From: a virus
Virus record (IMG/VR): IMGVR_UViG_3300010883_026915
Coordinates: 16,015-80,014 of that record
Reading direction: 5' to 3' (one strand)
DNA: 64,000 bases
In this document: in pieces, positions 9,630 through 27,600 of the stretch
Layout: each line of letters opens with the position of its first letter
Position numbering within the stretch: the stretch's first letter is position 1
Translations under genes and position numbers: made by a program
Notes under the pieces: model-generated
What the model was told of the DNA's origin: nothing
Seen by the model: only the letters and a program-made list of their open reading frames with translations
The model's database searches: none

Positions 9630-10481
9630 ATGGAAAAATTAATTACAAGCAGTTTTCCAACTGGGAAAAAACATATATCTTTTTCTGAAATAAAGATATG
9701 GAAAGAGTGTTCATGGAGACATAAGCTAGTATATATTGATAAAATAGACATGTTCGAACCGTCACCTTACCTAGATTTTGGAACTGCAGTTCACGAAGGC
9801 TGTGAGACATATTTAAAAAATAGATCTGTTAATGTTGAAAAGCTTAAGGAAAATATAGTTTCTGCATGGGAAAAGTATGGATTTGATAATCCTGAATGGG
9901 TAGCTAAGCAACCATCATGGTATTTGAAATCATCTAATGTAGGTGTGGAAAAATGGTGTGAGTGGGCAGAAAATATGTGGGCAGAAGTTCCAGAATTTTT
10001 AGAAGAAACTTTTCCCGGATGGGAATGCTTTGATGCTGAGGAGACACTATATGAATCAATAGATAAAAAAGATATATTATTTAAAGGATTTATTGATGGT
10101 ATTATAAAAGTGCCAAAGAAAAGAGGTGAAGGGAGCATTTATTGGATTATTGATTGGAAAACTTCTGGAGCCTATGGGTGGAGAAGAGATAAGAAGCAAG
10201 ATCTAGGGATGACAGCACAATTAATTCTTTATAAGCATTTCTGGGCTAGAAAGCACGGAATCGATATAAAAGATGTTAGGTGTGGGTTTGTACTTTTAAA
10301 ACGAGGGGGTAAGCAAGGCAAAATATGTGAACTAGTAACAGTCTCAGTAGGCCCAAAATCTCTTGAAAAAGGAAAAAAATTAATGAACAATATGGTGGGA
10401 TCTGTTCAGAATCAACTATTTCTAAAAAATAGAAATAGTTGTAAGTATTGTCCATACGAAAATACAAACTACTGTACATAG
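9630..10481 (+). CDS. PD-(D/E)XK exonuclease, Cas4/AddB-like with Fe-S cysteines
   Basis: HISFSEIKIWKEC, FGTAVH, FKGFIDGI...IIDWKT, QLILY, C-terminal CKYCPY.....C. Confidence 0.85.
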   Translation: MEKLITSSFPTGKKHISFSEIKIWKECSWRHKLVYIDKIDMFEPSPYLDFGTAVHEGCETYLKNRSVNVEKLKENIVSAWEKYGFDNPEWVAKQPSWYLKSSNVGVEKWCEWAENMWAEVPEFLEETFPGWECFDAEETLYESIDKKDILFKGFIDGIIKVPKKRGEGSIYWIIDWKTSGAYGWRRDKKQDLGMTAQLILYKHFWARKHGIDIKDVRCGFVLLKRGGKQGKICELVTVSVGPKSLEKGKKLMNNMVGSVQNQLFLKNRNSCKYCPYENTNYCT

Positions 10482-10548
10482 TATTCAAATTATTAACAAT
10501 ACTTCTTTTTATAGTATTATTTTTTAAACAAAGAGTGAAAATTTCTAG

Positions 10549-11790
10549 ATGAAAAAGAAAATATTAATTTTATCTGACCATGCATTATCAACGTCAGGAG
10601 TTGGAACACAGACAAGACATTTAATAGAGGGCCTTCTCAAGAATAATAAGTATACATTTAGGCAATTTGGCGCCGCATTAAAGCATAATGATTATAGGAC
10701 AGTAGTTGTAAATGAAGACTTTATAATAAAACCCATTGACGGCTTTGGCGATAGAGATTTGCTTAGAGTTACACTTGCAACAGAAAAGCCAGATGCACTT
10801 ATTATATTTACAGATCCAAGATTTTTTATATGGCTATTTGAAATGGAAGATGAGATACACCAGATATGCCCAATTGCATGGTGGCATGTATGGGACAATA
10901 CTCCGTATCCTAGATATAATGAGCCGCTTTATAATGCAACAGACTTAATAAATTGTCACTCTCATCATACATACAAGCAACTGTATGATAAGTTTCCAGA
11001 TAAGGTTAATTTTGTACCTCATTCAATTCCAGAGGAAATATTTAAACCTCTTCCTGAAAACATGGTAATAGATGAAAAGAGGAAAATACTAGGAAAATCT
11101 AAAGAAAATCATTTTGTTGGAATATGGGTTAATAGAAATGCAAAAAGAAAGAGATCTGCTGATGTTCTTGAATCTTGGAAGCTATTTTTAGATAATTTAG
11201 AAAAAGATCATGGTCATAAAAATGCTACACTTATTATGCATTGTGACCCTCTTGATCACGAAGGACCAAATTTATTATCTGTTTCAGACATGCTTGGGAT
11301 AAGTGAAAACGTAATGTTTTCAAAAGAAAGATTAGACTTTGATCAAATGAACGTACTATATAATATTTCAGATTTTTGTCTAAATATTAGTTTTGCTGAG
11401 GGATTTGGTCTATCAACACTTGAGTCAATGCAGGCAGGAACACCTATAATTGCTCAAAAAACAGGAGGTCTGACAAGACAAGTAGAGGATCATCGTGATG
11501 GATCACAAAACGGTGTTGCACTTGATGTTGAGCTAAGAACATTAGTAGGCTCACAGCAAGTTCCCTATATATACGAGGATTATGTTTCAAATGAAACAAC
11601 GTCGAAAGCAATTATGAAAATATACAATCTTGACGAAGACGAGAGGGAAGAATTATCAAATAAGGTTATTGACTATGTAAATAGTGAATTCAATCATCAG
11701 ACTATGATTGATAAATGGGATACAACACTTTCCAGTTTAATTGATAACTGGAAAGATAACTATAAGAGATTTGAAATTACAACATTATGA
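10549..11790 (+). CDS. Glycosyltransferase, GT-B fold (GT4-like)
   Basis: ILILSDH...SGVG, VNRNAKRK, EGFGLSTLESMQAGTPII (EX7E). Confidence 0.88.
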   Translation: MKKKILILSDHALSTSGVGTQTRHLIEGLLKNNKYTFRQFGAALKHNDYRTVVVNEDFIIKPIDGFGDRDLLRVTLATEKPDALIIFTDPRFFIWLFEMEDEIHQICPIAWWHVWDNTPYPRYNEPLYNATDLINCHSHHTYKQLYDKFPDKVNFVPHSIPEEIFKPLPENMVIDEKRKILGKSKENHFVGIWVNRNAKRKRSADVLESWKLFLDNLEKDHGHKNATLIMHCDPLDHEGPNLLSVSDMLGISENVMFSKERLDFDQMNVLYNISDFCLNISFAEGFGLSTLESMQAGTPIIAQKTGGLTRQVEDHRDGSQNGVALDVELRTLVGSQQVPYIYEDYVSNETTSKAIMKIYNLDEDEREELSNKVIDYVNSEFNHQTMIDKWDTTLSSLIDNWKDNYKRFEITTL

Positions 11791-12968
11791 AAAAAATAAG
11801 AGCAATTATAAGAGCACCGCTACTTTCTGTAAGTGGATATGGAGTTCATTCAAGACAGCTACTTACATATCTTGAAAAGTCTGATTTAAATTTTGATATT
11901 GAAACACAGACTGTAAACTGGGGAAATACTCCATGGCTGCTTAATCCTGATCTAGAAAACGGACAGGTTGGAAGAGTTATGGAAAAAAGTATGAAAAAAG
12001 ATGAAATAGCTGATGTTTCATTCCAAGTTCAGCTACCAGATGAATGGGATCCGAATCTTGCAAAGATAAATATCGGTCTATCAGCAATACTAGAGACAAA
12101 TCTTTGTAACAAGGAGTGGGTAACTGCTTGCAATAATATGGATGCAGTTATAGTTCCATCACAACATGCAAAAGAAGTTCTAGAGATGTCTGGTAACCTT
12201 GAAACAGAACTATATGTTGTTCCAGAATGGTTTTTTCCAGAAATAATTGAAGAAAATTCAGCAGACGAATATTTTAAAAATTATAATTTCGGTACAGATT
12301 TTAACTTTTTAATTGTATCTCAGCTAACAGGTCAAAATACTGACACTGATAGAAAAAATATATTTTATACACTAAAGTGGTTTTGTGAAGTTTTCAAAGA
12401 TGATCCTAGTGTTGGAATTATATTAAAAACAAACCATGGAAGGGGGACATCTATAGACAGAATGCTAACTGAGAGCCTTCTAAAAAATGTTCTATCAGAT
12501 ATTGGAAAGAAAGATTTTCCAAAAATACATTTCCTTCATGGAAATTTAACACCATCTGAGATGGCAGGGCTATATTCCAACAAGTCTGTCAAAGCATTTG
12601 TAAGTCTAACAAGGGGCGAAGGCTTTGGATTACCATTACTTGAGTCAGCTGCAGCAGGAATACCCGTTATAGCGACAAACTGGTCAGCTCACACAGAATT
12701 TTTATCAATGGGAAGATTTTTATCTATAAATTATGACTTAATAGATGTACCAGAGTCAAAAATTGACGGAAGGATATTTGTTAATGGAATAAAATGGGCC
12801 GACCCACACGAGAAAGATTTTAAGAAAAAAATAGCAAAGTTTAGAGAAAAATCTGAAATACCAACAGAGTGGGCAAAAGAACTATCTGCTAAAATAAGAA
12901 ATAAATACTCTTCTAGTTCAATATGCAAGATGTATGACAGTGTTATCAAAGAGATATTAGAGGTATGA
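11787..12968 (+). CDS. Glycosyltransferase, GT-B fold (GT4-like)
   Basis: SGYGVHSR, DRKN, TRGEGFGLPLLESAAAGIPVIATNWSAH (EX7E). Confidence 0.88.
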   Translation: MKKIRAIIRAPLLSVSGYGVHSRQLLTYLEKSDLNFDIETQTVNWGNTPWLLNPDLENGQVGRVMEKSMKKDEIADVSFQVQLPDEWDPNLAKINIGLSAILETNLCNKEWVTACNNMDAVIVPSQHAKEVLEMSGNLETELYVVPEWFFPEIIEENSADEYFKNYNFGTDFNFLIVSQLTGQNTDTDRKNIFYTLKWFCEVFKDDPSVGIILKTNHGRGTSIDRMLTESLLKNVLSDIGKKDFPKIHFLHGNLTPSEMAGLYSNKSVKAFVSLTRGEGFGLPLLESAAAGIPVIATNWSAHTEFLSMGRFLSINYDLIDVPESKIDGRIFVNGIKWADPHEKDFKKKIAKFREKSEIPTEWAKELSAKIRNKYSSSSICKMYDSVIKEILEV

Positions 12969-13294
12969 TTGAATTGCTAGCTATTTCTAAGATTGTATTT
13001 TTTATACTCTTAGTGTTAGCTCTTTTATATTCTATCAGGCTAAATATAAAATTAGGTATCTATCTACTAGATGTTGAAGATTCAATAGAAGAGTCACTTG
13101 ATATTCTAGATGCTCAGTACAAATCTATATCATCAATATTAGAAATACCAATATTTTTTGATTCTATGGAAGTTCGACGTGTAATTGGAGATATAGAAAG
13201 AGCAAAGATAGCAGTATTAAAAGTAGCAAATGTTCTATCATCTGTAAGCGAAGTAGAGCAATATGAAGAAGTAGAGCAATCTGAAAAGGATTAG
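12965..13294 (+). CDS. Hypothetical protein with N-terminal transmembrane helix
   Basis: Hydrophobic IVFFILLVLALLYSI followed by an acidic helical region; ATGA overlap. Confidence 0.7.
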   Translation: MIELLAISKIVFFILLVLALLYSIRLNIKLGIYLLDVEDSIEESLDILDAQYKSISSILEIPIFFDSMEVRRVIGDIERAKIAVLKVANVLSSVSEVEQYEEVEQSEKD

Positions 13295-13301
13295 AATAAA
13301 A

Positions 13302-14045
13302 GTGGCAATTGTAGCAAAGAAAAAAACAAGAAAAAGAAGATCAAAGAGTAAGAAGAATGATTACTTTACGCAAGCTACTCATGATGCAATTAGAGAGTTT
13401 CAAAATACTGAAGCAAATTCAGGTAAACATAAAATATATGTTGAAAATATACTCCCGGCGTTTAACAAGCTAGCAGAAAATTTAATTTTTATACATAGGT
13501 TTGCGAAGACTGCTGATTCATTTGATAGATTAAAAAATGACTGTGTTACATTTTTATATGAAACATTGCATAAATTTGACCCAGATAGAGGTACAAAGGC
13601 ATTTTCTTATTTTAATGTTGTTGCAAAAAACTGGCTAATTATTCAAAGCAAAAAACAAGCAAAGCAAGTTAGAAGAAATATAAGCCTCGAAGATATTCAA
13701 GAAAATCAGGGAAGTGAACTAGCACAACACGCAGCATTCAAAGTCGCTGCAGTTCAAGAAAGGAATATGATAAAAAGAGAGTCAAAAGCTGACTTGGAAA
13801 AAATGTTACATGAGATAAAAAACAGGCTAAGAACAGAAAAGGAAAATTCTTGTATTGATGCAATTATATCACTTTTTGAAAGAGTTGATGACCTTGAGCT
13901 ACTTAATAAAAGAGCAGTGTTCATATACTTAAGGGATATATCAAACCTGTCACCAAAACAACTTTCTGTTACAATGTCAACAATTAGAAAACACTATAGA
14001 GATATTACAGGAAGGGATGATTTTTCACTTATTCTTGGAGATTAA
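13302..14045 (+). CDS. Phage late-transcription sigma factor (T4 gp55-like)
   Basis: KFDPDRGTKAFSYFNVVAKN resembles sigma region 2 of gp55-type factors; lies just upstream of the virion genes. Confidence 0.68.
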   Translation: MAIVAKKKTRKRRSKSKKNDYFTQATHDAIREFQNTEANSGKHKIYVENILPAFNKLAENLIFIHRFAKTADSFDRLKNDCVTFLYETLHKFDPDRGTKAFSYFNVVAKNWLIIQSKKQAKQVRRNISLEDIQENQGSELAQHAAFKVAAVQERNMIKRESKADLEKMLHEIKNRLRTEKENSCIDAIISLFERVDDLELLNKRAVFIYLRDISNLSPKQLSVTMSTIRKHYRDITGRDDFSLILGD

Positions 14046-14047
14046 AA

Positions 14048-14428
14048 ATGATTAAAAAAGATGGTAAGCGTTTTTCAGAAAAGATAACTGAGCTAGAATT
14101 GAAAATAACAAGATTTTCTGAATTACTTGAGTCTTTGGAAAACACTGAAGATAAGAAGAAGCTTTTGTGGAAAGAGATTTATGAAAATTCTCTAAGTGAT
14201 AGAGAGAATGCAAGTATACTCCTTACAGACTTACTAATGCAAACTAGGGGAAATCTTGCAAACCATGGTACATACGGATCAATTTTATCAAAATATCTTG
14301 AAAGGATGTCAAAAAGCAATGATCAGATACTAAGACTTGCAGAGATTATAGGCAAAGAAGAAGAAAAGTCAGTAGATATAAACGATATATACTCTAAAAT
14401 TAGTGAGAGCCAAGATGGGCCAGTTTAA
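14048..14428 (+). CDS. Hypothetical helical protein
   Basis: 126-aa ORF tightly packed between the sigma and baseplate genes. Confidence 0.7.
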   Translation: MIKKDGKRFSEKITELELKITRFSELLESLENTEDKKKLLWKEIYENSLSDRENASILLTDLLMQTRGNLANHGTYGSILSKYLERMSKSNDQILRLAEIIGKEEEKSVDINDIYSKISESQDGPV

Positions 14429-15866
14429 AAGTTTTAATTCTCCTGAGTGCAAAAAACCTGAGGCTGGTAGACCAAATAAAGAAACGAAAAAAACCGTAGA
14501 AAAAACAGGTTCCGGAAGGCTTCTATATCAAGCTGTTGTTTTAGATTTCTTTTCAAATCCTGAATCTGATTTAGAAAAATCGTATAATGGATCAACGGTA
14601 AGAGAAACACTAGGTCTCCTTGCAAATGGGTCAACAATGCCTCGTGGCTCAATTCTTGCAAAAATTGTATCTGATGATTTGGCATCTGACTCAAAGCCTG
14701 ATGTTGCTGTTAAAGGTTCTATATTTCTCCCAATGTTTCCTCATCTTGCTATGCCAGTCAAGCCTGGCGAAAGAGTATGGGTGATATATGAAACATTAAA
14801 CAAGTCGACTGCAAAGGTGGGATACTGGTTGTCAAGAATCTCTTCTGATGTTCGAGTTGATGATATTAACTATACACACTATTCTAGGGAAGCTTTATAT
14901 GGCGGCGGAATAGATGGAATAACAGATGCTCAGGCATATGGATTTGCCCCAGCTGGCACGACAGATGAGATTCCAGGTAGTGATTCTTATAATTTACTAT
15001 GCAATAATTCATTCTCGTATAATGAGCAATTTGTAGGTGAACCGGTTCCCAGATTCTCTCAGAGGGTTGGAGACTTAGTTCTGCAAGGATCAAATAATAC
15101 GCTTATATGTCTTGGACAAGATAGAAAAGATCTCTCTGGGCCAGAAAAAGACACCGATCACCTTGACAAATCAGGAACAATAGATATGGTCACTGGTCGT
15201 GGTCAGCCAGCCACTTTGCCCGCCACCAGCACTGCACCTTCAAAAGAGGTAGATCTGTCTACAGTTCTAAAAAGTGAAATTAGAGATTATTCAGAGATAG
15301 ATAAATTTCCAAGTCATAGCAAAACTCCTTCAAATATAGCAGAGGGCAACCCTGATTACACAAATGATCTATCAAGAGTTTATGTCTCATCAAACACAGA
15401 CGGCGATGTAAAGTTTGGCGGAACTGTTGCTGATCTAGTGCTTGGTGGTACAACTGGAGCAAACTCAAGTACAGGACCTTATGTTGTCGTAAAATCAACA
15501 CACCCTAGAATCATAGCACGCAGCGACGGAAGTGTAAAGATTGTACACCAGGGCGGCTCTAGCATATCGATGGACAGCTCTGGAAACGTTCAGATTGTGG
15601 CAGCTGGGAATATAAGCATGGGAACAGCAACCGCACTAAAAATGCAACCATTTGTAAGAGCAGATGATCTAGAGATTGAACTTGCAAAGATAGTTGCAGC
15701 AATCACTGCAGTTGCAGCAGCAGCAGGAACTGCAATCGCAGCAACCCCAGCCAACATCACCCCCGCCACCGCAACCACTGCGGGTGTAACTGTCAGCGCT
15801 TCTGCATCTGGTCTTTCAGCCTACCTTGCAGCAAACTTTAAGTCAAGTATCATAAAAGGTGAGTAG
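14403..15866 (+). CDS. Baseplate hub/spike protein (gp5/VgrG-like, no lysozyme domain seen)
   Basis: PMFPHLAMPVKPGERVWV (OB-fold-like), GDLVLQGSNNTLICLG and short beta-strand repeats (GSVKIVH.GGSSISMDSSGNVQI); upstream of gp25/gp6. Start may be ATG 14415. Confidence 0.6.
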   Translation: MRAKMGQFKSFNSPECKKPEAGRPNKETKKTVEKTGSGRLLYQAVVLDFFSNPESDLEKSYNGSTVRETLGLLANGSTMPRGSILAKIVSDDLASDSKPDVAVKGSIFLPMFPHLAMPVKPGERVWVIYETLNKSTAKVGYWLSRISSDVRVDDINYTHYSREALYGGGIDGITDAQAYGFAPAGTTDEIPGSDSYNLLCNNSFSYNEQFVGEPVPRFSQRVGDLVLQGSNNTLICLGQDRKDLSGPEKDTDHLDKSGTIDMVTGRGQPATLPATSTAPSKEVDLSTVLKSEIRDYSEIDKFPSHSKTPSNIAEGNPDYTNDLSRVYVSSNTDGDVKFGGTVADLVLGGTTGANSSTGPYVVVKSTHPRIIARSDGSVKIVHQGGSSISMDSSGNVQIVAAGNISMGTATALKMQPFVRADDLEIELAKIVAAITAVAAAAGTAIAATPANITPATATTAGVTVSASASGLSAYLAANFKSSIIKGE

Positions 15867-15952
15867 GTATCATTTTTTACAACAGCACTATATACGACAT
15901 GACAATGCTTGTTACAATAATTTTATAATACCCATAAAGGAAAGATTTAAAA

Positions 15953-16135
15953 ATGGAAAAAGATGAAGTAATGAAGCTTGCTAAGCTTAGAAGCTATTTA
16001 ATAACCTATTATAACAAACTCGAAAACCCAGGAAACCAAACTTCTTTGACTTCGACAAAGGATGTTGCATACCTATGTGAGACTGTAATTAAGAGCATGG
16101 ATGACATTCTTAAGGAATTTGTTAATTTTGAATAA
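15953..16135 (+). CDS. Hypothetical protein
   Basis: 60-aa ORF with an upstream AAGGA, filling the gap between baseplate genes. Confidence 0.6.
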   Translation: MEKDEVMKLAKLRSYLITYYNKLENPGNQTSLTSTKDVAYLCETVIKSMDDILKEFVNFE

Positions 16136-16178
16136 ATAAAAATCTAGCATATGTATAGTCTCAGTTTCACAATGCTGT

Positions 16179-16185
16179 ATAATTA
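16179..16185 (+). promoter_or_regulatory. Candidate late promoter ATAATTA
   Basis: 16 nt upstream of the gp25-like start; the ATA(T/A)TTA motif recurs at similar spacing before other late genes. Confidence 0.45.
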
Positions 16186-16201
16186 ATACTGGAGGCTTTA
16201 C

Positions 16202-16690
16202 ATGCCATCACCACCAGACGATGAAGAATTTAGATCTTCTGGTCTTTATTTTACAAGCGGATCATTATTAAGCGAGGTTGAAGCCCTCGCTGTTGGTGTT
16301 AGATTACCAATTGAAGTAGGAACAGAACGATCTGATTTATTTCAAATGAATTATGATGCTGCTTCTCAAGTTGGCGATAACTTTAAAAATCTTGTAAATA
16401 CTGATCATAATGAAAGGCTTGGGAGTCCAAGCTACGGTGCAAATCTTGGTCCGCTAATATCAGAGTATCAGGAGTTAGGTGATGATTTTGAGTCAGCAGC
16501 GATGGATAGAATACAAGCAGCAGTTACAAAATGGATGCCAACAGTCCAGCTTAACACTTTTACTTCGAAATTTGTCGAAGATAGAGATCCTGGAATGCTC
16601 AGGCTTGATATATCAATAGGCTACAGTGTCACATCGCCCACAGTAAGCTTTTCAGGAAGGAAATTAAATGTATCGTTTATGCTTCTATAA
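16202..16690 (+). CDS. Baseplate wedge subunit, gp25/GPW-like
   Basis: QVGDNFKNLVNT...ERLGSPSYGANL...IQAAVTKWMP.V pattern; directly before the gp6-like gene. Confidence 0.8.
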   Translation: MPSPPDDEEFRSSGLYFTSGSLLSEVEALAVGVRLPIEVGTERSDLFQMNYDAASQVGDNFKNLVNTDHNERLGSPSYGANLGPLISEYQELGDDFESAAMDRIQAAVTKWMPTVQLNTFTSKFVEDRDPGMLRLDISIGYSVTSPTVSFSGRKLNVSFMLL

Positions 16691-16709: not shown

Positions 16710-18563
16710 ATGTCAAATAATAAAAAAAACACAGTTCAATCAATTAGAGAATCACAGAGAACATATTTAAATAGAGATTTTGATTCATTCAGATCTTCAC
16801 TTTCTTCATATGGAAAAGCTTTTTTTAGTGAAAAAAATGCTGACTTTGGCCCAAATGGATTTGCTGGAATGATGATTGAGCTAGCAGCATATGTTGGTGA
16901 CACACTTTCTTATTATATGGATCATCAATTCCAAGAATTAGATCTTTCAGAAGCTGTCGAGCCTTCTAATGTTGAGAGGCTTATACGGAATACAGGTATG
17001 AAAATAACTGGCGCCTCTCCTGCAACAGTTCTCGTCGATTTTTATATTGAAGTTCCAGCAATACTTGAAAGGAGAAAATATGTTCCTAAATCAACCCTTT
17101 TACCTGTAATAAAGGAAGGAACTACAGTTTCATCTGGTGGCGGAATTATCTTTACACTATACGAAACACTTGATTTTAGTAGAAAAAGCTCAATGGGAAA
17201 TATTATTGCAACTTATGTTACTATGAAATCAGATTCATCTGGAAATCCAACGTCATTTTCTGTAAAAATGTCAGGAATGTGTATATCATCAACAACTCAA
17301 AAAGAACAGTTTGTCATACCCAATAGGTTTGAACCTTTTAGAAAGATAATGTTATCAAATGCAAATGTAACTGAAATAATTGATATAATAGATTCAGAGG
17401 GCAATGAATATTATGAAGTTGAAAGCTTAACGCAGGATACAGTTTTTAAAAGGGTTGACAATCTTGCATATGATTCTGAATCTGTTGCAGAAAACATAGA
17501 GCTTCTTCCAGCTCCAAGAAGATTTATTACGTCAACATCAATAAAATCAAAAAAGACACAAATTCAGTTTGGCGGCGGAAATGCAAAATCTACTGATAAC
17601 GATTTAATGCCAGACCCTTCTGAGCTATCAATTCCATTTTACGGAAAGAGAACATCTGTTTCAAATTTTGCTATTGATCCAAACAGGCTTTTAAATACAA
17701 TTACACTTGGAATCTCACCACAAGGCACAACAATTTCAGTAAGGTATAGAGCAGGAGGCGGCATTAAGCATAATGTTTCTGCTGGGTCAATTAGAAATGT
17801 AAACAATCTTAAGGTAAAGTTTGGATCAAATATATCAGCTCCTAGTGTTTCATCAATACGATCATCACTAGAAGTTGATAATCAAAAAGCTGCAGCTGGC
17901 GGAGAAAATGCACCAACATTGAATGAAATGAGATCAATAGCACTGTCATATAGAAACTCACAATCGAGAATAGTTACAAAGGATGATCTTGTAGCAAGAA
18001 TATATACTATGCCAAATAAGTTTGGAAGGGTCTTTAGAGTTGGAATTAGGGCAAATAATAATAATCCGCTTGCAAGTGTTATTTCAATATTAAGTCGTGA
18101 CTCTGATGGGAAGTTAACAATATCATCAGACTCGCTTAAGCAAAATTTAGCAACATATATAAATGAATCAAGATTAATATCAGATGCAATAGATATAGTT
18201 GATGGTGCCGTCATAAATATTGCAGTAGCATATGGTGTTACAGTTTCTGGAAATTGTAACCCAGAGACAGTTATTCAAAAAATAAATACATCAATATACT
18301 CATACATGAATATTGAAAATTTTCAAATAGAGCAGCCAATTATAACATCTGATATAGTAAATATAATATTAAATACTCAAGATGTAGTCTCTATAGTAAA
18401 TTTGAAATTTACGAATAGATATGGTGTTATTGGTGATAATGTATATAGCGGCATATCATATCCGATCGATCAAAACACTAGTAGAGGAATGATAATATCA
18501 CCACCGGGCTCTATATTTGAGTTAAAATATCCAAATGAAGATATAGTTGGAACAATAAGGTAA
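16710..18563 (+). CDS. Baseplate wedge subunit, T4 gp6/baseplate J-like
   Basis: YLNRDFDSFR...MMIELAAYVGDTLSYYMD.QFQE, IQFGGG, AAGGE...RIVTKDD. Confidence 0.85.
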   Translation: MSNNKKNTVQSIRESQRTYLNRDFDSFRSSLSSYGKAFFSEKNADFGPNGFAGMMIELAAYVGDTLSYYMDHQFQELDLSEAVEPSNVERLIRNTGMKITGASPATVLVDFYIEVPAILERRKYVPKSTLLPVIKEGTTVSSGGGIIFTLYETLDFSRKSSMGNIIATYVTMKSDSSGNPTSFSVKMSGMCISSTTQKEQFVIPNRFEPFRKIMLSNANVTEIIDIIDSEGNEYYEVESLTQDTVFKRVDNLAYDSESVAENIELLPAPRRFITSTSIKSKKTQIQFGGGNAKSTDNDLMPDPSELSIPFYGKRTSVSNFAIDPNRLLNTITLGISPQGTTISVRYRAGGGIKHNVSAGSIRNVNNLKVKFGSNISAPSVSSIRSSLEVDNQKAAAGGENAPTLNEMRSIALSYRNSQSRIVTKDDLVARIYTMPNKFGRVFRVGIRANNNNPLASVISILSRDSDGKLTISSDSLKQNLATYINESRLISDAIDIVDGAVINIAVAYGVTVSGNCNPETVIQKINTSIYSYMNIENFQIEQPIITSDIVNIILNTQDVVSIVNLKFTNRYGVIGDNVYSGISYPIDQNTSRGMIISPPGSIFELKYPNEDIVGTIR

Positions 18564-18566: not shown

Positions 18567-20111
18567 ATGTATAGAATACTGACAGCTAGCAAAGATACAT
18601 ACGTTACTAATAAGATTATTAATAATAGTTTTAGAGCAACAGATGCAAATGTAGGAATGGCATCTACTCTTGATTTATATAAATTATATGGAGAGTCTAC
18701 GTCTGGATCTGTTGAAAATCCAATCGAAATAAGTAGAATATTATTAAAGTTTAATTTAAATCCATTACGTGCACTTACTGGATCAATACTTGACTTAGAT
18801 TCAAGTACTTTTAAAGCAACATTAAATCTATATGATGTATACGGAGGTCAAACAACACCTAGTAATTTTAAATTAATAGTATTTCCACTTTCAAAATCTT
18901 TTGATGAGGGTATAGGTAGAAATATAGTAGATTTTTCTGACTTAGATTCTTCTAACTTTATAACAGCATCTGTATCAAATAGTTCTGCTGATGCCTGGCA
19001 TCTAAGCGGCGCAAACAAGCAAGGTTTTCTAGGATCAAGTAATATTGATATTATATCAAGCGGAACGCTGAGTGGAAGTAGTGAAACAGAGAATATTAAT
19101 ATCTGGAAATCGCAAACTTTTAGTACAGGAGATGAGAATCTATCTATAGACGTAACTACAATAGTATCTGGAACACTAGTAGGTTTAATACCCGATTGTG
19201 GCTTTAGGATTTCATTTAGCGGAAGCCAGGAAACAGATAAGAAAACAAGATTTGTAAAAAGATTTGCATCTAGACATACTACAAACTATATCAAAAGGCC
19301 TTCAATTGTTATTCATTACGATGATTCTGTACAAGATCATCACGAAGTTTTTTACTTTGACATGACGGGAAGCGTATTTTTAAATAATAGTGCAAGAGGC
19401 ACAAGAAGAAATTTCAGATCAGGATCAGCTGCAACTGAAATAACAGGTTCAGACTGCCTATATCTTGAGCTTGTATCAGGATCTAATCTAAGCGGAACAT
19501 TATTCCAGAAAACAATAACTGGATCTCAGCATAAAATTGGAAAAAACTTTATAACAGGTGTATATTCTGCATCATTTGCAATAAGTGAGTTCGAAAGTGG
19601 CACTTTATATCACCATGTTAAAAGTGCAGGATCAGCAAGCTTTACTGCTGTATGGTCATCAATGGATAAAACTGTTCCATTTCTAACATCTTCACTAGTT
19701 ATTTTTAGAACTGATAGATCTGCATTTGATAATGATCAAAAAAGACTTATTGTTACAGTAACAAATGTTCAACCTACATATGGCTTAAATGATAAAGTTA
19801 GATTTAGAGTATTTGCTGAAAATATAGATAGAGATGTTGTATATAAGAAGGTTCCAATGGAAACAAAGAGCCAGATATTTACAAAAATGTACTATAGAAT
19901 TAGGGATGCAATATCTTCAGATATAATAATACCATTTGAAAAATCAAACAATGCAACTCTTTGTTCTACTGATAGTGATGGAATGTATTTTGATATATAT
20001 ATGGATTCACTTAATGAGGGTAGACTTTATACTATAGACTTTTTAATAAAAGACATGGGTGAGGATCTTCTCTTTACAGATGTTGCAGCAAAATTTCGAC
20101 TAGAGAAATAG
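18567..20111 (+). CDS. Virion (baseplate-associated) structural protein
   Basis: Follows the gp6-like gene; ASKDTY...SRILLKF...PLSKSFDEG.G beta-sandwich-type pattern; S/T/G rich. Confidence 0.65.
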   Translation: MYRILTASKDTYVTNKIINNSFRATDANVGMASTLDLYKLYGESTSGSVENPIEISRILLKFNLNPLRALTGSILDLDSSTFKATLNLYDVYGGQTTPSNFKLIVFPLSKSFDEGIGRNIVDFSDLDSSNFITASVSNSSADAWHLSGANKQGFLGSSNIDIISSGTLSGSSETENINIWKSQTFSTGDENLSIDVTTIVSGTLVGLIPDCGFRISFSGSQETDKKTRFVKRFASRHTTNYIKRPSIVIHYDDSVQDHHEVFYFDMTGSVFLNNSARGTRRNFRSGSAATEITGSDCLYLELVSGSNLSGTLFQKTITGSQHKIGKNFITGVYSASFAISEFESGTLYHHVKSAGSASFTAVWSSMDKTVPFLTSSLVIFRTDRSAFDNDQKRLIVTVTNVQPTYGLNDKVRFRVFAENIDRDVVYKKVPMETKSQIFTKMYYRIRDAISSDIIIPFEKSNNATLCSTDSDGMYFDIYMDSLNEGRLYTIDFLIKDMGEDLLFTDVAAKFRLEK

Positions 20112-20112: not shown

Positions 20113-23100
20113 ATGAAAAAACGAATAGTTTCAAAATCAAAAAGACCTTCTCTATTTAAAAATGAAAAATCAATAAATAAACTGACTTCAAAAAAAGAAA
20201 TAAGTCTTTCTAGTATGATGGATACAAATATACAGTCAGATGAATCATTTAGATATGATTCTTATTCAGAAGCTATAAAAAACACACAACAGCTTAACAT
20301 TGACTATACAAAATTCAAAAATCATACATTTTTCAATTCTGCGCAAGCAAAGACAAATATTGCAATATCTAAAATAATTAATGAGTATCCGTTTGATCAA
20401 AATAAAAAATCAATAGAGTCATTTTTTGATTCACTTACTGGATTTGAAAATTATGTTTTTAACATATTTCCAAAATATACTGGCTATTTACATTTTTCAG
20501 GAACAGTCTCTGGTGAACCAGCTAGTAATGGAACAATATTAGAAATATTTGATTCAAGCGGCTATAAGTTCCCACAATTCTCTACAAAAAATGATGGAAA
20601 TGCAGAGATAGATTTCGAATATAATCCGATCACAGTAGAGTTTCAAACATATATACCGGATCAGGTAAATGAAAATCAAATAATTATTCAAAAACAAAAA
20701 GAAGCAGGCTTCGGAGTAAATATTGCACTAAGCAGAAGCCTTGATACTTCAAGATGTAATATTATATGGTCTGTTGTTTCTGGTGGCATACACACATCTG
20801 TATCAAGTAGTATAGAAAAGGGAAAATGGGTTAATGTAGGTTGTATATATGATAGGGGAAATGAAAACAATCTGCACTTATTTTTTGACGGTGAGCTTCA
20901 AGGAACTTCTTCAAATAAAGCAGAGTTTAGTATACTTTCTTTTGACAAGTCTCCGCTTTATATTGGGACCGGATCTATATTCAATATTGATTCAAGATTT
21001 CAAAAAGGAGGAGAATCTACATTTTCACCTCAGGTATCTCTTTCTGGAAATTTAGATGAAGTTAGAGTGTTCCATGATGTTAGAACTGCAGATGAGCTAA
21101 AAGAGTTTAGACAAAAGAGTATCTTTCCTGAGCCAAACCTAGTATGCTATTTAAAGTTTAATGAACCATCGGGAAGCTATAAGGGAAATAAAATTATATT
21201 AGACTCTTCTGGAAACTCAAATCATGCTTTAATTCAAAACTTTACTAGTGAGCTAAGATTTACAGGATCACTTAGCTCGCCCTTGCTATTTGAAAAGAAA
21301 AACCTAACCCCGATTTTATTTCCTGATCACTACCTTGTTAAAGATCTAAATACAAAAATGCTTATATCAGCATCTAGGTATGACGAGATAAATCCAAATC
21401 TTATAACAAGATTAATACCAAAGCACTTTTTCGTCGAAGGTCAGGCAAATGAGGGATTTTCAACACAGGCTGGAGAAATTGTAAAAGCCATAACAGGAAA
21501 TTCAATGCCAGGATCAGCAAAGCTTGGAAGTGCGCAGCTTATGACATCATTTCTACTAGTTTATGCAAAATTCTTTGATGAATTGAAGATAGTAATTGAT
21601 AGCATTAGTAATTTTCTTAATGTAAACTATGAAAACGAAGAGACTATACCAGATCAGCTATTGCCAGCACTTGGGAGGTATTACGGAATAGATTTGCCTA
21701 GCTTGTTTACAAATGCTGATATATATCAATTTATTGATGGAGAAAGACTGGGAGAGAGCTGGGGTGCTAGTCCAAGATCACTTAGGGAATTACAAAACGC
21801 ACTCTGGAAAAGATTTTTGATAAATATTCCCTATATAACTAGATCAAAGGGAACAATAAGAAGTATAAAGTCTACATTATCATCATTTGGAATAGATCCA
21901 GATGATATTGTTAATATAAGAGAGTTTGGAGGACCTACTAAGAAGACACTAGATAATAAACGTATAAGAAAAATCAAGGCAATATCCTTTCTAGACTTTA
22001 CTGGATCTTTTGGTCATGAGAATGATACAGTTAACTATCAAGGCTACTCAAGCACATCTCCGATTTTTATTAGCAAATATCTTAGCTCTTCAAGAGTTGA
22101 ACCAGGATATCCTGAAATAAAGGGCAACTTTATAAATAAATCTAGTACAAATAGAAATGGTATATCAAATAATAAAAGTGATGGACAGCACACATCAGGA
22201 TCTTTTACATATGAAGCATATTATAGATTTCTAGAGAAGCCCAGGCTGGGTGGAAAAACACATTATGCAACACAGAGCCTAGCTAGACTTCATGTTACAG
22301 GATCACATGATGGAGTAGGTGGGGGAGCACATATTCTTAACATTCTGGCAACATCTGCTTCTATCCCTACAGAAAACAATAGATTAACTCTATTTGTTAG
22401 AGATGCCATCGACATCGCCACCCCTGGCCTAAAGATACAGATAAATGATAAAAATTTAGACCTGTTTAATGGTGAGCCCTGGTACATATCATTTGGAAAA
22501 GTCAGGTCAGATGACATCATAACTTCAGTATCAGAGAGTCTTGTTGGGTCAAAAGTTAGATCTCCGTTTTCAACGCCTAAGATTTCAACTAACATGACAT
22601 CATCATGGTTTATTAGGGCAGCAAGGTCTGCAAACGGGCGAGTTACAGAGTCTTACGTAAGTAAATCATTCTTTGCTTACGATGACCACAACCTGCTCGA
22701 AAATATCGCGCCCAGCGGTGAGACAGGCTATAATCCTAGTGGAACTTTTATAGCGATAGGCTCACAAAGCATGCCTCTTCCGACAACAATTTCACAAGAG
22801 AGATTTTTAATTAGTGATCGATCTTCTATTGAAGGATTGCCAAATTGGTCAAGTGGTGATCGAGACCTGGCAATGTCAACAAAATTCTCGGGCCAGGTTG
22901 GAAAGATAAGATTCTGGTCTTCTGCACTTGATGAAAAATCATTTAAAGATCATGTTAGAAATCCTGATTCTATAGGTTCACTAGACCCTGTAAAGAGTTA
23001 TGATTTTATAACTCAGGAAACAGGTTCTTTCCAGCGACTTAGAGTTGATCATCAGATGTCACAAGAAGTTCTCACATCTTCTGCAACAGGTGAGCTTATG

Positions 23101-23790
23101 ATAACAAACTTTACACAGACTACAGCAGCTACAGCACGCGGATTTGAGAAAAATAAACAAATTATAAAAAATGAAAATATATTCTACTCTATGCTTTCTC
23201 CAAAGTTTGATCTCTCACAAACAGATGAGAAAGTTAGAGTTAGAGGTTTCTCAGATTCTAAAAATATAGATAGTGAAGATTATGCATATGCATCACCAGT
23301 ATATGAAGTGCTGAGAAGTGAAAGCCCAGATGATGATACAAGATTTGCTATAGAGTTTTCAGCAATAAAAGCAGTTGAAGATGATATAATGTCTTTGTTT
23401 TCGTCTCTTGAGTTTTTTGATAATGCACTTGGAAATCCAAATTTATTATTTGATGAATTTTATCCTGATTTAGAGCAAATGAGAAAGATTTACTTTAGAA
23501 GACTATTAGCAAAACCTGAATTTGATTCATACTATAGGATGTTTAAATGGTTCACTAGTTCTCTAGGCAATATACTAGAGCAGCTTGTCCCAAAGAAGAC
23601 AAAGTTTCTTGGAATAGATTTTATATATGAGTCACATCCGTTGGAAAGAAATAGATTTAGATACCTATATGATGAGATTTATCTAGGGCAAGCCGAAAGA
23701 TCATTTGATAAACCCCCAGATAAGCCTACAGAATATCCTGATAATCCTGCTGCTGGGCAACTCAAGTCTGGCCAAATTAAGAAGTTTTAA
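20113..23790 (+). CDS. Large baseplate protein with LamG/concanavalin-like domain(s) and a P2 gpI/gp7-like segment
   Basis: GKWVNVGCIYDR...LFFDGEL...LSGNLDEVRVF (LamG); NIPYITRSKGTIRSIKSTLSSFG (gpI-like). Confidence 0.7.
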   Translation: MKKRIVSKSKRPSLFKNEKSINKLTSKKEISLSSMMDTNIQSDESFRYDSYSEAIKNTQQLNIDYTKFKNHTFFNSAQAKTNIAISKIINEYPFDQNKKSIESFFDSLTGFENYVFNIFPKYTGYLHFSGTVSGEPASNGTILEIFDSSGYKFPQFSTKNDGNAEIDFEYNPITVEFQTYIPDQVNENQIIIQKQKEAGFGVNIALSRSLDTSRCNIIWSVVSGGIHTSVSSSIEKGKWVNVGCIYDRGNENNLHLFFDGELQGTSSNKAEFSILSFDKSPLYIGTGSIFNIDSRFQKGGESTFSPQVSLSGNLDEVRVFHDVRTADELKEFRQKSIFPEPNLVCYLKFNEPSGSYKGNKIILDSSGNSNHALIQNFTSELRFTGSLSSPLLFEKKNLTPILFPDHYLVKDLNTKMLISASRYDEINPNLITRLIPKHFFVEGQANEGFSTQAGEIVKAITGNSMPGSAKLGSAQLMTSFLLVYAKFFDELKIVIDSISNFLNVNYENEETIPDQLLPALGRYYGIDLPSLFTNADIYQFIDGERLGESWGASPRSLRELQNALWKRFLINIPYITRSKGTIRSIKSTLSSFGIDPDDIVNIREFGGPTKKTLDNKRIRKIKAISFLDFTGSFGHENDTVNYQGYSSTSPIFISKYLSSSRVEPGYPEIKGNFINKSSTNRNGISNNKSDGQHTSGSFTYEAYYRFLEKPRLGGKTHYATQSLARLHVTGSHDGVGGGAHILNILATSASIPTENNRLTLFVRDAIDIATPGLKIQINDKNLDLFNGEPWYISFGKVRSDDIITSVSESLVGSKVRSPFSTPKISTNMTSSWFIRAARSANGRVTESYVSKSFFAYDDHNLLENIAPSGETGYNPSGTFIAIGSQSMPLPTTISQERFLISDRSSIEGLPNWSSGDRDLAMSTKFSGQVGKIRFWSSALDEKSFKDHVRNPDSIGSLDPVKSYDFITQETGSFQRLRVDHQMSQEVLTSSATGELMITNFTQTTAATARGFEKNKQIIKNENIFYSMLSPKFDLSQTDEKVRVRGFSDSKNIDSEDYAYASPVYEVLRSESPDDDTRFAIEFSAIKAVEDDIMSLFSSLEFFDNALGNPNLLFDEFYPDLEQMRKIYFRRLLAKPEFDSYYRMFKWFTSSLGNILEQLVPKKTKFLGIDFIYESHPLERNRFRYLYDEIYLGQAERSFDKPPDKPTEYPDNPAAGQLKSGQIKKF

Positions 23791-23805: not shown

Positions 23806-24678
23806 ATGCCAATTAAACCGTTTATAGATAGAAAAGAGATAAATCTAAGCACTAATGACTCTCTGCTGGCGTTGGCATCTGCTGCATCTGGATCTTTCGC
23901 TGCACCATGTATAGATGCATTTAAGCAAGGTGTAAGCCTAAAGACTTCAAAAGATGTATTCTCAAGACTGCTTCCTTTCGTAGGATCTAAAGGTCTACCT
24001 TTAAATTTTTATGATACTATTGACTTCTCACTTGAAAGAACAACATATGGAAATGTTGAACTATTTAGTGAATCTAGCAATGGATCAACAGTTGATCCAT
24101 TTGATGATATATCATCATTAAATAATCCTGTTACTTTTCTTAAAGATGATGGTCTTACAGCTTACCCACAAGTTATGCTTAGTCCAAATTGGCTTGATCC
24201 AGGGCTCATGAACGGAATAATAGAGCCTTTAGATCTTAGGGGAACATTGCCAGGTGCTAGTGTTGACTCTCCCTTTGTAGCAAGAACAATAAAGGCAAGC
24301 ATTATGGATAATCCCTATCCGTATAGGTGCGATAGAGTGTTTGATAAAAAGTCTACATTTGATGTAGACGTTGCATTTATAGATTCTCAAAATCTAGGTC
24401 CATCAAAGGATAATTTTCATATGTTCTCTGAGCCTATAGGTGATTTCGGTAGATCAAAAATATCACCATATGACGAGCTAATTGACAGCTATATTGTAAA
24501 TGATCTAAAGACTATGAGTGATACTAATTTTAACGATACTATTGGACTTGGAATAATATCAAGGGGAGTAGGAACAATAATGAATTATAATTCTTCTAAA
24601 ATTGTTCAAAGAGGTGAGTCTGGATTTAGAAATCTAACAGTAGTTGACTCAATAGCATTTGGAGGCTTAGTTAAGTAA
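23806..24678 (+). CDS. Hypothetical virion protein
   Basis: 290-aa ORF in the structural operon; TAATG coupling to the next gene. Confidence 0.65.
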   Translation: MPIKPFIDRKEINLSTNDSLLALASAASGSFAAPCIDAFKQGVSLKTSKDVFSRLLPFVGSKGLPLNFYDTIDFSLERTTYGNVELFSESSNGSTVDPFDDISSLNNPVTFLKDDGLTAYPQVMLSPNWLDPGLMNGIIEPLDLRGTLPGASVDSPFVARTIKASIMDNPYPYRCDRVFDKKSTFDVDVAFIDSQNLGPSKDNFHMFSEPIGDFGRSKISPYDELIDSYIVNDLKTMSDTNFNDTIGLGIISRGVGTIMNYNSSKIVQRGESGFRNLTVVDSIAFGGLVK

Positions 24679-27600
24679 TGCCAATATCAGGTTCAAAAGG
24701 ATATAGATCGGGAATATTATCACTGCCCAATAGAGTTACAATAAGGATGACAGATAGTGTCAGTGGAACATATCCGACCACTGCTAGAACTACAGGTAAA
24801 ACTCATGGATTAATTGGAAAAAATATATTAAGATTTGATGATACTAAAACTAAGATGTTTTTAGGCTCAGATTCAATGGTATATCCAATTGTTCAGACAG
24901 CAGCAAACATATCACAATCTAATACTTCTATACTTATTGCATCGCCTAACAAGCCACCGACTATTATCACACATGGAACATCTTCTGACGGCCTTTCAAT
25001 GGACGGGATGATTTCAAATATAGAAAACGGTCTAGTATTTTTACCTTACGATGAAACAAGAATTGTTAATACAGGAAAATCTGATTCTTTCTATGCTACT
25101 GGCACAAAATCAGAAAATCTACCAGGATTTTCAGGTCCACTTAGGGATAAAATAAGTATAACAATACCAATAAATAATTCAAGCCAGAAAATAGCTACAA
25201 GATATAATGTTTCAGGAATAAATGTTGACTCAAGCGGGCATTTTCCTTCGACATCAGACAAATATTCTGGATTTTTATATTATAACCCAAGCTTAAATAG
25301 GTGGGAGGATATCGGCCTTGTAGATCATTTGCACAACTCATCTACAAACTACAAGATGTACTATCAGAGTACAAGTACAGATGTAAGCAAAGTTGATTGC
25401 TGGATCGCTGGCACACATGTTACAAGCTCCAATCTTGGAGCTGGCACTCCTTCTTATCCCAAAATGCAGCAATTTGCAATGTCAGATCATATGGCAGTAT
25501 ATCTTGACTCTGTCGCTGATATATCTTCTGTAAAGGGCTCTAGTAAGTACTCAATATTGACGTCTTCTTTAGATTATCATCTTATTGGAACACCAACTAT
25601 AGCAGCATTAGCTCCGGGTGCATCAATATATCATGCTACATCTAGTCAGACTTTGTCTATTGACAATTATATAAATGATCCATTTGCACTAGAATCTATG
25701 GTTCTAGAGATACCAGTTGTAGTTCAAAGAATGAGAGGCACTGTTGCAAAGCCAACAGAAGAGTCTAGGTTTTATGAAGCATGCAGAGATATTGACAATT
25801 ATACATTTTTTATATATAGACAGACTAGACCTACTAATTCTAATATTGACTCAGATGAACATATAGAAACCTCAAGAAGATATTTGATTGGAAGCGGGTG
25901 TGCTACATTTTCAAATACAAATTCACTTTCAGGAAGAATGCCAGCGATTGTTCGTTCAAAGGGCTGGCCACACAAGCCAGCGTTTTCTCATGACTTTCTC
26001 GTTGCCAGTGGCGCTGCAGCAAATGAAAATGTAACTTCTAGTCCCATATCAGTGTTTTCAGGAACACTAGAAATAAAAATAAAACCAGCAGTAGCAAATG
26101 GGCAATATCTAGGGGGTTCTAGGTTTCCTCTAGGCCCAAGTATAGGTGCCGGTCTTGCTGGAGGCAGTGTTTTTTGTACTGATGGTATACGAAGCATAGT
26201 AACACAAGATTTTTGGCCAGGTGGAACAACTACATTGTCTGGAAATATAAAGCCAGCATCATCTAGACAATATTCACCTCAGATAAATACTAGTATTTTT
26301 AAAGGTGCTAGAGACCCACAGATTAGTTTCGCAGGATCATTATTACACAGTGAATATAATAACTTGCTTAGTGAGTACAAAGAGCTAGTTCTTAAAGATA
26401 AGCTAGGATTAGTTGATACTAGGCCGCTTGCAAATGGTATCGGCTTAAGATCAACAGGTTCAGTTGAAAATACAGTTTCAGGAACTATCGCACTTGGACA
26501 AAAAAGTGGAATACTAGGATATACAGCACAATCAACGCCATCTACAAGAAGCTTTCCTGTCGGTCTTGGATCTCTTCCAAACTCAAAAGAGTCACCATAT
26601 CTACTGCTACCTGGTGATGAAATAGTTCTGGGTCTTGATGTGGGTGTATCTATGATTCCAAGCTCTGGAACAAACATGACATGGACTTCTGGACTTGGGA
26701 CAATTGATGTTGGGAAAGATTTGGGATTCTATTCTGCATCTAGCGCAGATAATGAATACTTTGGAACAGTTTCAGGATCATTTATGAAACTAATAAAGGG
26801 TCAAGCTAAACTAACACTATACGGATCTCTAGTCAGATGGGGAAAGGGAATAGAAGGTGAATCAAATCAGAATATCACGTCAGATGCAATACATGAAGCT
26901 GTGGGAAACCATAGGGTAACAGATCAGTATGATATTCCAACAAGAAATGATCTATCTTCAAGCTACGTTGATAGATTTATAGTAGGTGTTATGAAATCTG
27001 GCTCAAGAGATGCATACTACTCAGAGAATAGCGGATATTATGAAAACACTATAAATTTTAATTTTGGATATAATCTAAAAAGATCTGTTAGAGGATTATT
27101 TTCTAAAAATAGAACTGGAATATACAGTAATCTTCAAAATACAATATTTTCTAATTATAGTGTTGGTGCTCCACCTAGATTAAAATATTCATCAGTTTTC
27201 CCTTCAAATACAAGCGTTGTACTTGACAGATACCATATATCTAGATACGGAGAGTCAATATTTGATTTTGGAAAAGGCTTTCGATCGCTCCAGAGATTTG
27301 TCGGACTAGACTGCAATAAAGAAAGATTTTATGATACTGTTATGCCTGATATTATGCACCTGGCTTTAGCATCACCATCACTATCTGTAGATCCAATACC
27401 TTCCGGAACATATACAAAAAGGATAACACTTGATAAGCATAGAGCTATATCATACCCATATAGTGGTAACCCGGATAGATATGTAGAACAAAAGTACTAT
27501 CTTAGAGTTGATGCTTCAAGTGGAACAATTGGAAGCACAATTCAAGATTTTAAATCTGACTATGACAGAAAGCTTGTCAATGTTTGCTTATTTCAACGAG

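Follow-up and report, generated by a model that had tools for sequence, protein, structure and literature searches.

A hydroxyl-glycine-hydroxyl tripeptide enriched in peripheral virion proteins of a T4-like phage clade is a candidate O-glycosylation sequon

Introduction

Virion proteins of the mycobacteriophages Che8, Corndog and Myrna are glycosylated by glycosyltransferases (GTs) that these phages themselves encode, according to those passages of PMC12363180 and PMC11256854 that cite Freeman et al. 2023. Here we analyse a stretch of 64,000 nucleotides (the window; positions 16,015-80,014 of the IMG/VR record IMGVR_UViG_3300010883_026915, with coordinates given relative to the window unless stated otherwise) from an 80-kb contig of an uncultured marine T4-like myovirus, in which the tripeptide [ST]-G-[ST] is strongly over-represented in baseplate and fibre proteins and may act as a sequon for O-glycosylation by phage enzymes. 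As in the mycobacteriophages, whose soluble GTs modify the virion proteins in the host cytoplasm to give a glycan coat, the phage encodes its own GTs, namely a pair of GT4-type proteins (10549-12968) as well as genes of the GT2, GT4, GT8 and GT29-like types, and a Gly-Ser context recurs. The mycobacteriophage glycans are reportedly O-linked to the C-terminal ends of capsid and tail-tube subunits, whereas the candidate sites described here are internal, belong to baseplate and fibre proteins and are predicted from sequence. The capsid and tail-tube proteins of Che8 and Corndog end in KTGS, SDGS, PLVGS and IKGDS (genes 5051-5872, 7613-8422; 548-1780, 4317-5132 of the examined stretches), and these Gly-Ser C-termini may represent the acceptor context of the mycobacteriophage system. 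The virion proteins of the two phages have no clear internal motif excess, with the exception of the Che8 capsid protein (3 motifs versus 0.4 expected).

Two bacterial adhesin systems offer further parallels. The bacterial autotransporter heptosyltransferases (BAHT; TibC for TibA, Aah for AIDA-I) are cytoplasmic and O-glycosylate dispersed Ser and Thr residues in inter-strand loops of folded, beta-rich surface proteins without a linear consensus. Here, several motifs of a 514-residue (aa) protein are modelled at strand exits or entries, but most of those of a 411-aa protein after helices; the window also contains a heptose-type gene set (SIS isomerase, GHMP kinase, nucleotidyltransferase, epimerases). 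The BAHT enzymes are, however, GT9-like, whereas the pair described here is of the Glycos_transf_1/GT4 type and matches no GT9 model, with no NCBIfam heptosyltransferase among its listed matches; moreover, the sugar genes lie in the variable and not in the conserved part of the locus. GtfA/GtfB and SdgA/SdgB are O-linked N-acetylglucosamine transferases of Gram-positive serine-rich and Ser-Asp-repeat adhesins, in which two adjacent proteins of GT-B/GT4 type prime Ser in the cytoplasm and variable GTs extend the glycan, much as a conserved GT4 protein and a divergent one stand beside variable GTs in the present locus. Their acceptors are long tandem Ser-rich repeats, in contrast to the single tripeptides found here, which are dispersed in folded domains and whose excess survives shuffling within 10-residue windows. 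Neither GtfA nor GtfB is among the PDB sequence matches of the two GTs, and the SdgA and SdgB models score 17.0 and 15.7 bits on the pair against a cut-off of 800, which places the pair outside these families.

The Bacteroidota sequon D-(S/T)-(A/I/L/V/M/T) is also a three-residue O-glycosylation sequon, and at least one member of the clade studied here infects a Flavobacterium. That system is periplasmic and combines host enzymes with another motif, whereas phage virion proteins are cytoplasmic and the excess described below is found in a phage of a cyanobacterium as well. In the chloroviruses PBCV-1 and NY-2A, virus-encoded and host-independent enzymes glycosylate a structural protein at non-canonical sequons; there, in contrast, the glycans are N-linked to the major capsid protein of a eukaryotic virus, and the similarity of the first GT of our pair to the chlorovirus protein B736L is of generic GT4 level. 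The eukaryote-type Ser-Gly xylosylation site of proteoglycans was considered as well and rejected, the residues flanking the motif being hydrophobic (54% versus 32% background) and not acidic. Literature searches found no description of the motif or of glycosylated virions in this clade.

Motif excess in baseplate and fibre proteins

The 514-aa protein encoded directly after the gp6-like baseplate wedge carries [ST]G[ST], in the forms SGS, TGS and SGT, at 13 of its 33 glycines. Motif counts were compared with those obtained in whole-protein shuffles, in shuffles within local windows of 10, 20 or 40 residues and under a dipeptide-aware null. For this protein the expectation is 1.56 in whole-protein shuffles and 1.9-2.2 in local ones (p <=0.0005 each). 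Four further proteins are enriched, and the whole-protein expectations for the five, in order of position, are 1.56, 2.47, 4.34, 1.41 and 1.26 (p 0.0005-0.0075); for the four proteins other than the 514-aa one, whole-protein and local shuffles together give p 0.001-0.0095. For the open reading frames (ORFs) at 30478, 31803 and 35032 the excess is no more than marginal (p 0.03-0.08). The motif-bearing proteins and the wedge, which serves as an internal negative control, are the following:

16710-18563, plus strand: gp6-like baseplate wedge, identified by its PHROGs/Pfam baseplate wedge match; 0 motifs versus 1.4 expected
18567-20111, plus strand: 514-aa baseplate-module protein, directly after the wedge; 13 motifs, all in residues 1-360
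20113-23790, plus strand: 1225-aa protein with a Laminin_G_3 domain; 9 motifs versus 2.5 expected
24678-28019, plus strand: 1113-aa protein of the fibre/baseplate block; 11 motifs versus 4.3 expected
30478-33641, plus strand: 327-aa and 612-aa proteins (the latter at 31803-33641), marginal; 4 motifs versus 1.5 and 5 versus 2.3 expected
46285-47520, plus strand: 411-aa protein; 7 motifs versus 1.4 expected
47535-50096, plus strand: 853-aa protein, unmatched in cultured phages; 5 motifs versus 1.3 expected

Taken together, the virion block contains 70 motifs versus 31 expected and the non-virion ORFs about 10 versus 10.5. Proteins of the head, packaging and replication modules, among them the head-module ORFs at 59553-63019, are at or below expectation, as is the wedge; the SbcC-like protein (52083-55223) has 2 motifs, the terminase none and the portal one. 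An earlier note on this sequence, which had proposed the tripeptide as a candidate sequon, gave hand counts for the 514-aa, 1225-aa, 1113-aa, 612-aa, 411-aa and 853-aa proteins, SbcC, terminase, portal and wedge, and all of them were exact on recount. Its estimate of one to two motifs expected in the 514-aa protein agrees with the shuffled value, the four [ST]AS tripeptides it reported there are present, and the hydrophobic residues it had noticed before the tripeptide occur on both sides of it (54% on either side versus 32% background). The enrichment persists under whole-protein, local and dipeptide-aware nulls alike. Less distinctive are the Cys variants to which the note had also pointed: they do occur in the window proteins, but SbcC has some too.

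Two other sources of such an excess were tried and rejected. A genome-wide dipeptide bias does not agree with the non-virion ORFs, which meet expectation, and low-complexity linkers do not agree with the persistence of the excess under local shuffles.

Order and residue specificity

The hydroxyl-Gly-hydroxyl order occurs 67 times, compared with 37 occurrences of the permutation with Gly last and 33 of that with Gly first. When the central residue of [ST]-x-[ST] is varied, Gly alone is raised in the window (2.4x), while in two cultured relatives, Flavobacterium phage immuto and Microcystis phage Mel-JY01, both Gly (2.9x and 4.8x, respectively) and Ala (~2x) are raised. A Ser or Thr before Gly goes with a Ser or Thr after it more often than dipeptide frequencies predict, with coupling odds ratios (ORs) of 1.8 in the window, 3.5 in immuto and 6.0 in Mel-JY01 (p 8e-4 to 6e-11).

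For a finer view of the residue preferences we tallied tripeptides over a set of 80 IMG/VR loci of relatives (254 ORFs, 170,000 residues). SGS and TGS are enriched 5.2-5.5x, SGT 2.7x, TGT 1.75x, SAS and TAS 2.6-2.9x and AGT 2.9x; in the same proteins NGS is depleted (0.63x) and DGS stands at 0.93x. The flatness of DGS, together with the hydrophobic residue that precedes the hydroxyl-Gly-hydroxyl core, upholds the distinction from the Bacteroidetes sequon made in the earlier note. In immuto and Mel-JY01 the third motif residue is practically always Ser, and S-G-T is not enriched. The motif is thus better notated as [ST]-[G>A]-[S>T] than as the symmetric [ST]-G-[ST]. Such a restriction to Ser at the third position would be expected of an enzyme, whereas it would be strange in a backbone motif.

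The Ser codons of the motifs are mixed (AGY and TCN), in line with the note's statement that no DNA repeat is involved. GGA accounts for 51% of the motif glycines and for 37% of the other glycines; since any Gly preceding Ser or Thr also prefers GGA (48%), this is a codon-context effect and not a signature of the motif. A motif at the level of DNA or codons was therefore rejected.

Distribution among relatives and control phages

By portal, wedge and the first GT of the pair, the nearest cultured or named relatives of the phage are Mel-JY01, immuto and the uncultured jumbo phage LR756508, with Rhodothermus phage RM378 as a more remote relative by portal and GT. The hosts of immuto and Mel-JY01 (Flavobacterium and Microcystis) belong to different phyla. 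In public metagenomes, two searched protein families returned >1,800 and >4,600 distinct relatives. As a side observation on the portal (57510-59549), its matches in cultured phages span residues 1-468 of 679 only, the last ~210 residues being unmatched there.

In the 80 IMG/VR loci the family of the 514-aa protein is enriched 5.5x and the ORFs downstream of it 3.7x (1361 motifs observed versus 364 expected). The gp6-like wedge is depleted across 75 relatives (observed/expected ratio, O/E, 0.53), and the upstream non-virion ORFs of the relatives show no flank coupling (OR 0.94). The excess is also present in immuto (73 versus 27 expected) and Mel-JY01 (53 versus 12.8).

As controls we used the blocks of proteins downstream of the gp6 homologue in T4, cyanophage Sf-FS3 and Vibrio phage D479. 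None of them has an excess: the T4 block contains 4 motifs versus ~7 expected, and all tested T4 virion proteins together 11 versus 16.4 (O/E 0.54-0.67); the Sf-FS3 block, which includes proteins of 2,995 and 2,492 aa, contains 24 versus 23.8 (O/E 1.0), and the D479 block 16 versus 15.9 (O/E 1.0). Flank coupling in the control blocks is negative (ORs 0.33-0.72). Since the control phages are flat, a universal backbone preference is excluded. A generic preference of beta-sandwiches or turns was rejected on the same grounds, together with the depletion of NGS and the preference for Ser over Thr at the third position.

Just upstream of its baseplate genes, Sf-FS3 encodes a nucleotide-sugar epimerase and an unrelated glycosyltransferase (9783-10487 and 17427-18179 of the examined stretch). 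In this phage the motif is not in excess; the presence of GT genes is by itself no predictor of it.

Structural context and evolution of the motif sites

To visualize the location of the motifs we used AlphaFold models of two of the enriched proteins. The model of the 514-aa protein (mean predicted local distance difference test score, pLDDT, 82) consists of a jelly roll resembling a carbohydrate-binding module followed by Ig/FN3-like sandwiches. Most of its motifs either open the segment that follows a strand or immediately precede a strand, with one in mid-strand and one in a helix, and its conserved C-terminal (anchor) domain contains none. In the model of the 411-aa protein, with a pLDDT of 73, motifs come immediately after a helix in five cases out of seven, and motifs also precede strands. 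As modelled, the motifs are loops at secondary-structure boundaries, and their contexts differ between the two proteins. With strand exits in one and helix ends in the other, a single structural role or fold feature fits poorly.

No paralogy among the enriched proteins was detected by all-against-all BLAST or with a family hidden Markov model (HMM), only short C-terminal stretches being common, and a shared domain or common descent was accordingly rejected as the cause of the excess. One such stretch of ~45 aa is shared by the 327-aa and 612-aa proteins (30478, 31803). Another, of ~90 residues, forms the C-termini of the 411-aa and 853-aa proteins (47242-47520 and 49836-50096), which are homologous there at 26% identity; this module recurs in immuto, RM378 and LR756508 and at five places in Mel-JY01, and probably serves interchangeable fibres as a common means of attachment to the baseplate. 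Apart from the Laminin_G_3 domain of the 1225-aa protein, PHROGs and Pfam searches with the enriched proteins were negative. The 514-aa and 853-aa proteins had no tblastn match in a set of 50,697 phage records, and the 411-aa and 853-aa proteins none in PDB sequence searches; Foldseek with the 411-aa model gave no significant match.

The number of motifs is retained over distances at which their positions are not. Orthologues of the 1225-aa protein carry 8 motifs in immuto (1265 aa) and 11 in Mel-JY01 (1336 aa), next to the 9 of the window, and only two or three positions coincide among these three lineages (18-35% identity). Residues 255-392 of the 514-aa protein form an inserted domain of ~140 residues that holds 7 of the 13 motifs and is absent from the orthologues in Mel-JY01 (386 aa) and immuto (369 aa); in the N-terminal domain, the TGS at 267 is the sole motif common to all three lineages. 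At other sites unrelated residues take its place, the window's ISFSGSQE aligning with IKYSDEHE of Mel-JY01 and, in the orthologue alignment, with LKLSDDIEY. Within the closer family of the 514-aa protein (>=56% identity), in contrast, motif sites are positionally conserved, with swaps between Ser and Thr and replacements of Gly by Ala or Ser.

A conserved glycosyltransferase pair next to the baseplate genes

Upstream of the wedge lies a block of three genes that accompanies the motif in the clade:

9630-10481, plus strand: PD-(D/E)XK (Cas4-like) nuclease, which always precedes the GT pair, also in immuto
10549-11790, plus strand: GT1, a GT4-type glycosyltransferase; Glycos_transf_1 45.3 bits (cut-off 26.4), EX7E motif
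11787-12968, plus strand: GT2, a second, more divergent protein of probable GT4 type; Glycos_transf_1 37.0 bits (cut-off 26.4)

The two GT ORFs overlap by 4 bases. The EX7E motif of GT1, EGFGLSTLE at 284-292, lies in the C-terminal Rossmann domain and is conserved in at least 95% of 29 relatives, which together with the Glycos_transf_1 match above the gathering threshold assigns the protein to the GT4 type. Its PDB sequence matches are MshA, BshA and B736L of chlorovirus NY-2A (3oy2, E 1.6e-5). GT2 reads EGFGLPLLE in the window; among 32 relatives EGFGLP is conserved and the second Glu falls below 95% conservation, and a PDB sequence search gave no match. From this pattern GT2 may be a non-catalytic partner of GT1. 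Curated models match the pair only generically and far below their cut-offs (BshA, MshA).

The order nuclease-GT1-GT2 and its distance from the wedge are the same in all ~30 IMG/VR relatives with enough flanking sequence, in which GT1 is 56-70% identical. Mel-JY01 also keeps the GT pair, and immuto the whole block (7801-11720 of the examined stretch), behind which it has another glycan island, with aminotransferases, more GTs and a "pilin glycosylation protein". In the 50,697 phage records, GT1 matches eight entries, all of this clade save for one partial match of 59 residues in an uncultured phage from human faeces. The conserved block 9630-16690 contains no conserved kinase, acyltransferase or dedicated chaperone, its only conserved enzymes being the nuclease and the two GT4 proteins.

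A candidate sequon for cytoplasmic O-glycosylation

The analysis shows an excess that is specific in order and residues, restricted to peripheral virion proteins and spread through a clade in which a GT pair is conserved. The best single explanation, which we put forward tentatively as its probability falls somewhat short of even, is that [ST]-[G>A]-[S>T], mostly set between hydrophobic residues, is the sequon at which phage enzymes O-glycosylate the baseplate and fibre proteins in the cytoplasm. In this scheme the acceptor tags would sit in short loops at strand and helix ends of the outward-facing baseplate and fibre proteins, and the soluble, clade-specific GT4 pair, expressed with the late structural genes, would put the first sugar on the tag Ser/Thr of folded or folding virion proteins. 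The variable island next to it, with its nucleotide-sugar synthesis enzymes, other GTs and methyl- and sulfotransferases, would supply and extend the glycan, resulting in a lineage-specific sugar coat over the tail periphery. That a sugar is attached at all, which enzyme reads the tag and which hydroxyl accepts are points that we infer from these patterns. The wider claim, about which we are slightly more hesitant, is that a deep and very abundant T4-like clade of marine, freshwater and brackish waters uses an internal sequon Phi-[ST]-[G/A]-[S>T]-Phi (Phi, hydrophobic) that would be read by the GT4 pair and extended by island enzymes with nonulosonic-acid, heptose-type and sulfated sugars.

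If true, no sequon-directed system of protein glycosylation would have been described before in tailed phages other than the actinobacteriophages; it would be phage virion glycosylation, a kind already known, in a version that has a defined sequon inside the proteins and a new pair of enzymes. Very abundant ocean phages would then decorate their host-recognition apparatus with self-made, rapidly varying sugars, which would explain tens of kilobases of phage glycan genes without export machinery and bring a further factor into host range, adsorption to particles or mucus and the evasion of grazers or defences. The purpose of the sugar genes in marine phage genomes is a long-standing puzzle, here made experimentally approachable in two cultured phages, and glyco-engineering would gain a short acceptor tag that is portable and comes with its own pair of soluble enzymes.

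Several observations weigh against the glycosylation reading. Its support is correlative: since a single clade is characterized by the motif excess as well as by the GT pair, their co-occurrence amounts to a single phylogenetic event and not to a repeated association. LR756508 is only weakly positive (10 versus 4.1), and RM378 has a GT1 homologue (23% identity) but 11 motifs versus 6.3 expected, which is not significant in a count taken from a mixed 26-kb structural region in which the gp6 homologue was not located. The head-module proteins are unenriched, and so is the 813-aa protein at 28028-30469, which has the highest Ser/Thr (26%) and Gly (11%) contents of the block and yet 4 motifs versus 5.9 expected; by the same token, the motif is not the product of composition alone. 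In the family of the 514-aa protein a hydroxyl is kept at 0.77 of motif Ser/Thr and at 0.70 of other Ser/Thr (p 0.09), motif glycines are less conserved than other glycines, and extra motifs at sites other than those of the query arise at chance rate only. Finally, the GT pair matches generic GT4 models only. Its substrate could instead be DNA, lipid or polysaccharide, and its linkage to a nuclease could point to a DNA-related role.

These points determine how far the proposal of the earlier note carries. Its glycosyltransferases and nucleotide-sugar pathways are there (the GT4 pair and the island at 86-9570), and the enriched proteins, which it had called apparently unrelated, share nothing detectable by BLAST or HMM beyond the short C-terminal stretches. 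Shuffling, modelled context and GT distribution have left the sequon idea standing, although as a correlative one, for one clade, with motif residues that are not extra-conserved. On structure, the motifs are not buried turns of one kind but loops beside strands and helices, as far as two AlphaFold models indicate. The proposed link to the GTs is present in that all ~30 flanked relatives, immuto and Mel-JY01 keep the pair while the control phages without it are unenriched; its weight is limited by the single-clade event and by the unclear case of RM378.

Among the alternatives, a purely structural one survives best, although we consider it unlikely. Here the peripheral domains of the clade would favour a loop start or cap in which a hydroxyl-flanked Gly forms ST-turn or Schellman-like hydrogen bonds, with no modification involved and another target for the GT pair. 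The placement of the motifs exactly at secondary-structure boundaries in the confident parts of the two models would agree with this, as would hydrophobic flanks, which suit strand ends, and the conservation of sites within a family with Gly swapped mainly for Ala or Ser. A cap should, however, also be visible in the similar beta-sandwich-rich baseplate and fibre proteins of T4, the cyanophage (two of 2,500-3,000 aa) and the Vibrio phage, which have no excess and negative coupling, and it should favour the classic turn formers NGS and DGS, which are not enriched. Nor is S-G-T enriched in immuto and Mel-JY01, where Thr would serve structurally, and homologous positions of orthologues carry unrelated residues. 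The contexts vary between strand exit, helix end and mid-strand, and the enriched proteins have no detectable domain in common.

Another biochemical role specific to the clade appears improbable. It could consist in a different modification (phosphorylation, acylation, phosphoglycosylation), in recognition by an assembly chaperone or in hydroxyl-bearing loops that bind host glycans. That an excess specific in order and clade occurs in outward-facing proteins which are not paralogues means that the sequence itself is under selection, and such selection need not concern sugars; the 514-aa protein, moreover, begins with a domain similar to a carbohydrate-binding module. On the other hand, the conserved block 9630-16690 offers no kinase, acyltransferase or dedicated chaperone, and glycan-binding sites usually use aromatic residues, which the motif lacks. 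Very improbable, lastly, is a neutral origin of the excess in the history of the lineage or in sequence bias, without present function (unrecognisable ancient domains, codon or mutational bias, low-complexity linkers), for although constraint on motif residues is no stronger than on their neighbours and motif glycines favour GGA, that preference is general to Gly before Ser/Thr and the Ser codons are mixed, non-virion genes of the same genome are at expectation and the relatives' upstream ORFs uncoupled, the excess persists in 10-residue shuffles, and an orthologue compared across three lineages (18-35% identity) has kept 8-11 motifs in each, mostly in different places.

The variable glycan-synthesis island

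Besides the wedge, the SbcC-like nuclease, the large terminase and the portal, profile searches of the window, which has a GC content of 34%, identified a prohead protease and the glycan-synthesis island that would supply the sugars under the glycosylation reading:

86-9570, plus strand: variable glycan-synthesis island found by profile searches, adjoining the nuclease-GT block

It encodes a fusion of a cytidine monophosphate (CMP) transferase with a cupin, an SDR, a DHQS-like cyclase, epimerases, a GHMP kinase, an SIS isomerase, a uridine diphosphate (UDP)-glucose dehydrogenase, a nucleotidyltransferase and a sulfotransferase. The island extends 16 kb upstream of the window, where we found two enzymes of family GT2, one of GT4 and two of GT8, methyltransferases, NeuB, a CMP-transferase, a Maf/MptE-like protein and a GT29-like protein. 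Unlike the conserved GT pair, the nucleotide-sugar genes vary among relatives.

Two parts of the island stand out. At 86-3013, the CMP-type cytidylyltransferase fused to a cupin is grouped with the SDR and the 3-dehydroquinate-synthase-like cyclase, and these genes together with the upstream NeuB and second CMP-transferase (9342-13968 of the upstream stretch) suggest a pathway to an unusual activated ulosonic or carbocyclic sugar. At 4985-9570, the heptose-type set (GHMP kinase, SIS isomerase, nucleotidyltransferase and epimerases) is joined by the UDP-glucose dehydrogenase and the sulfotransferase; a phage-made sulfated glycan would be unusual.

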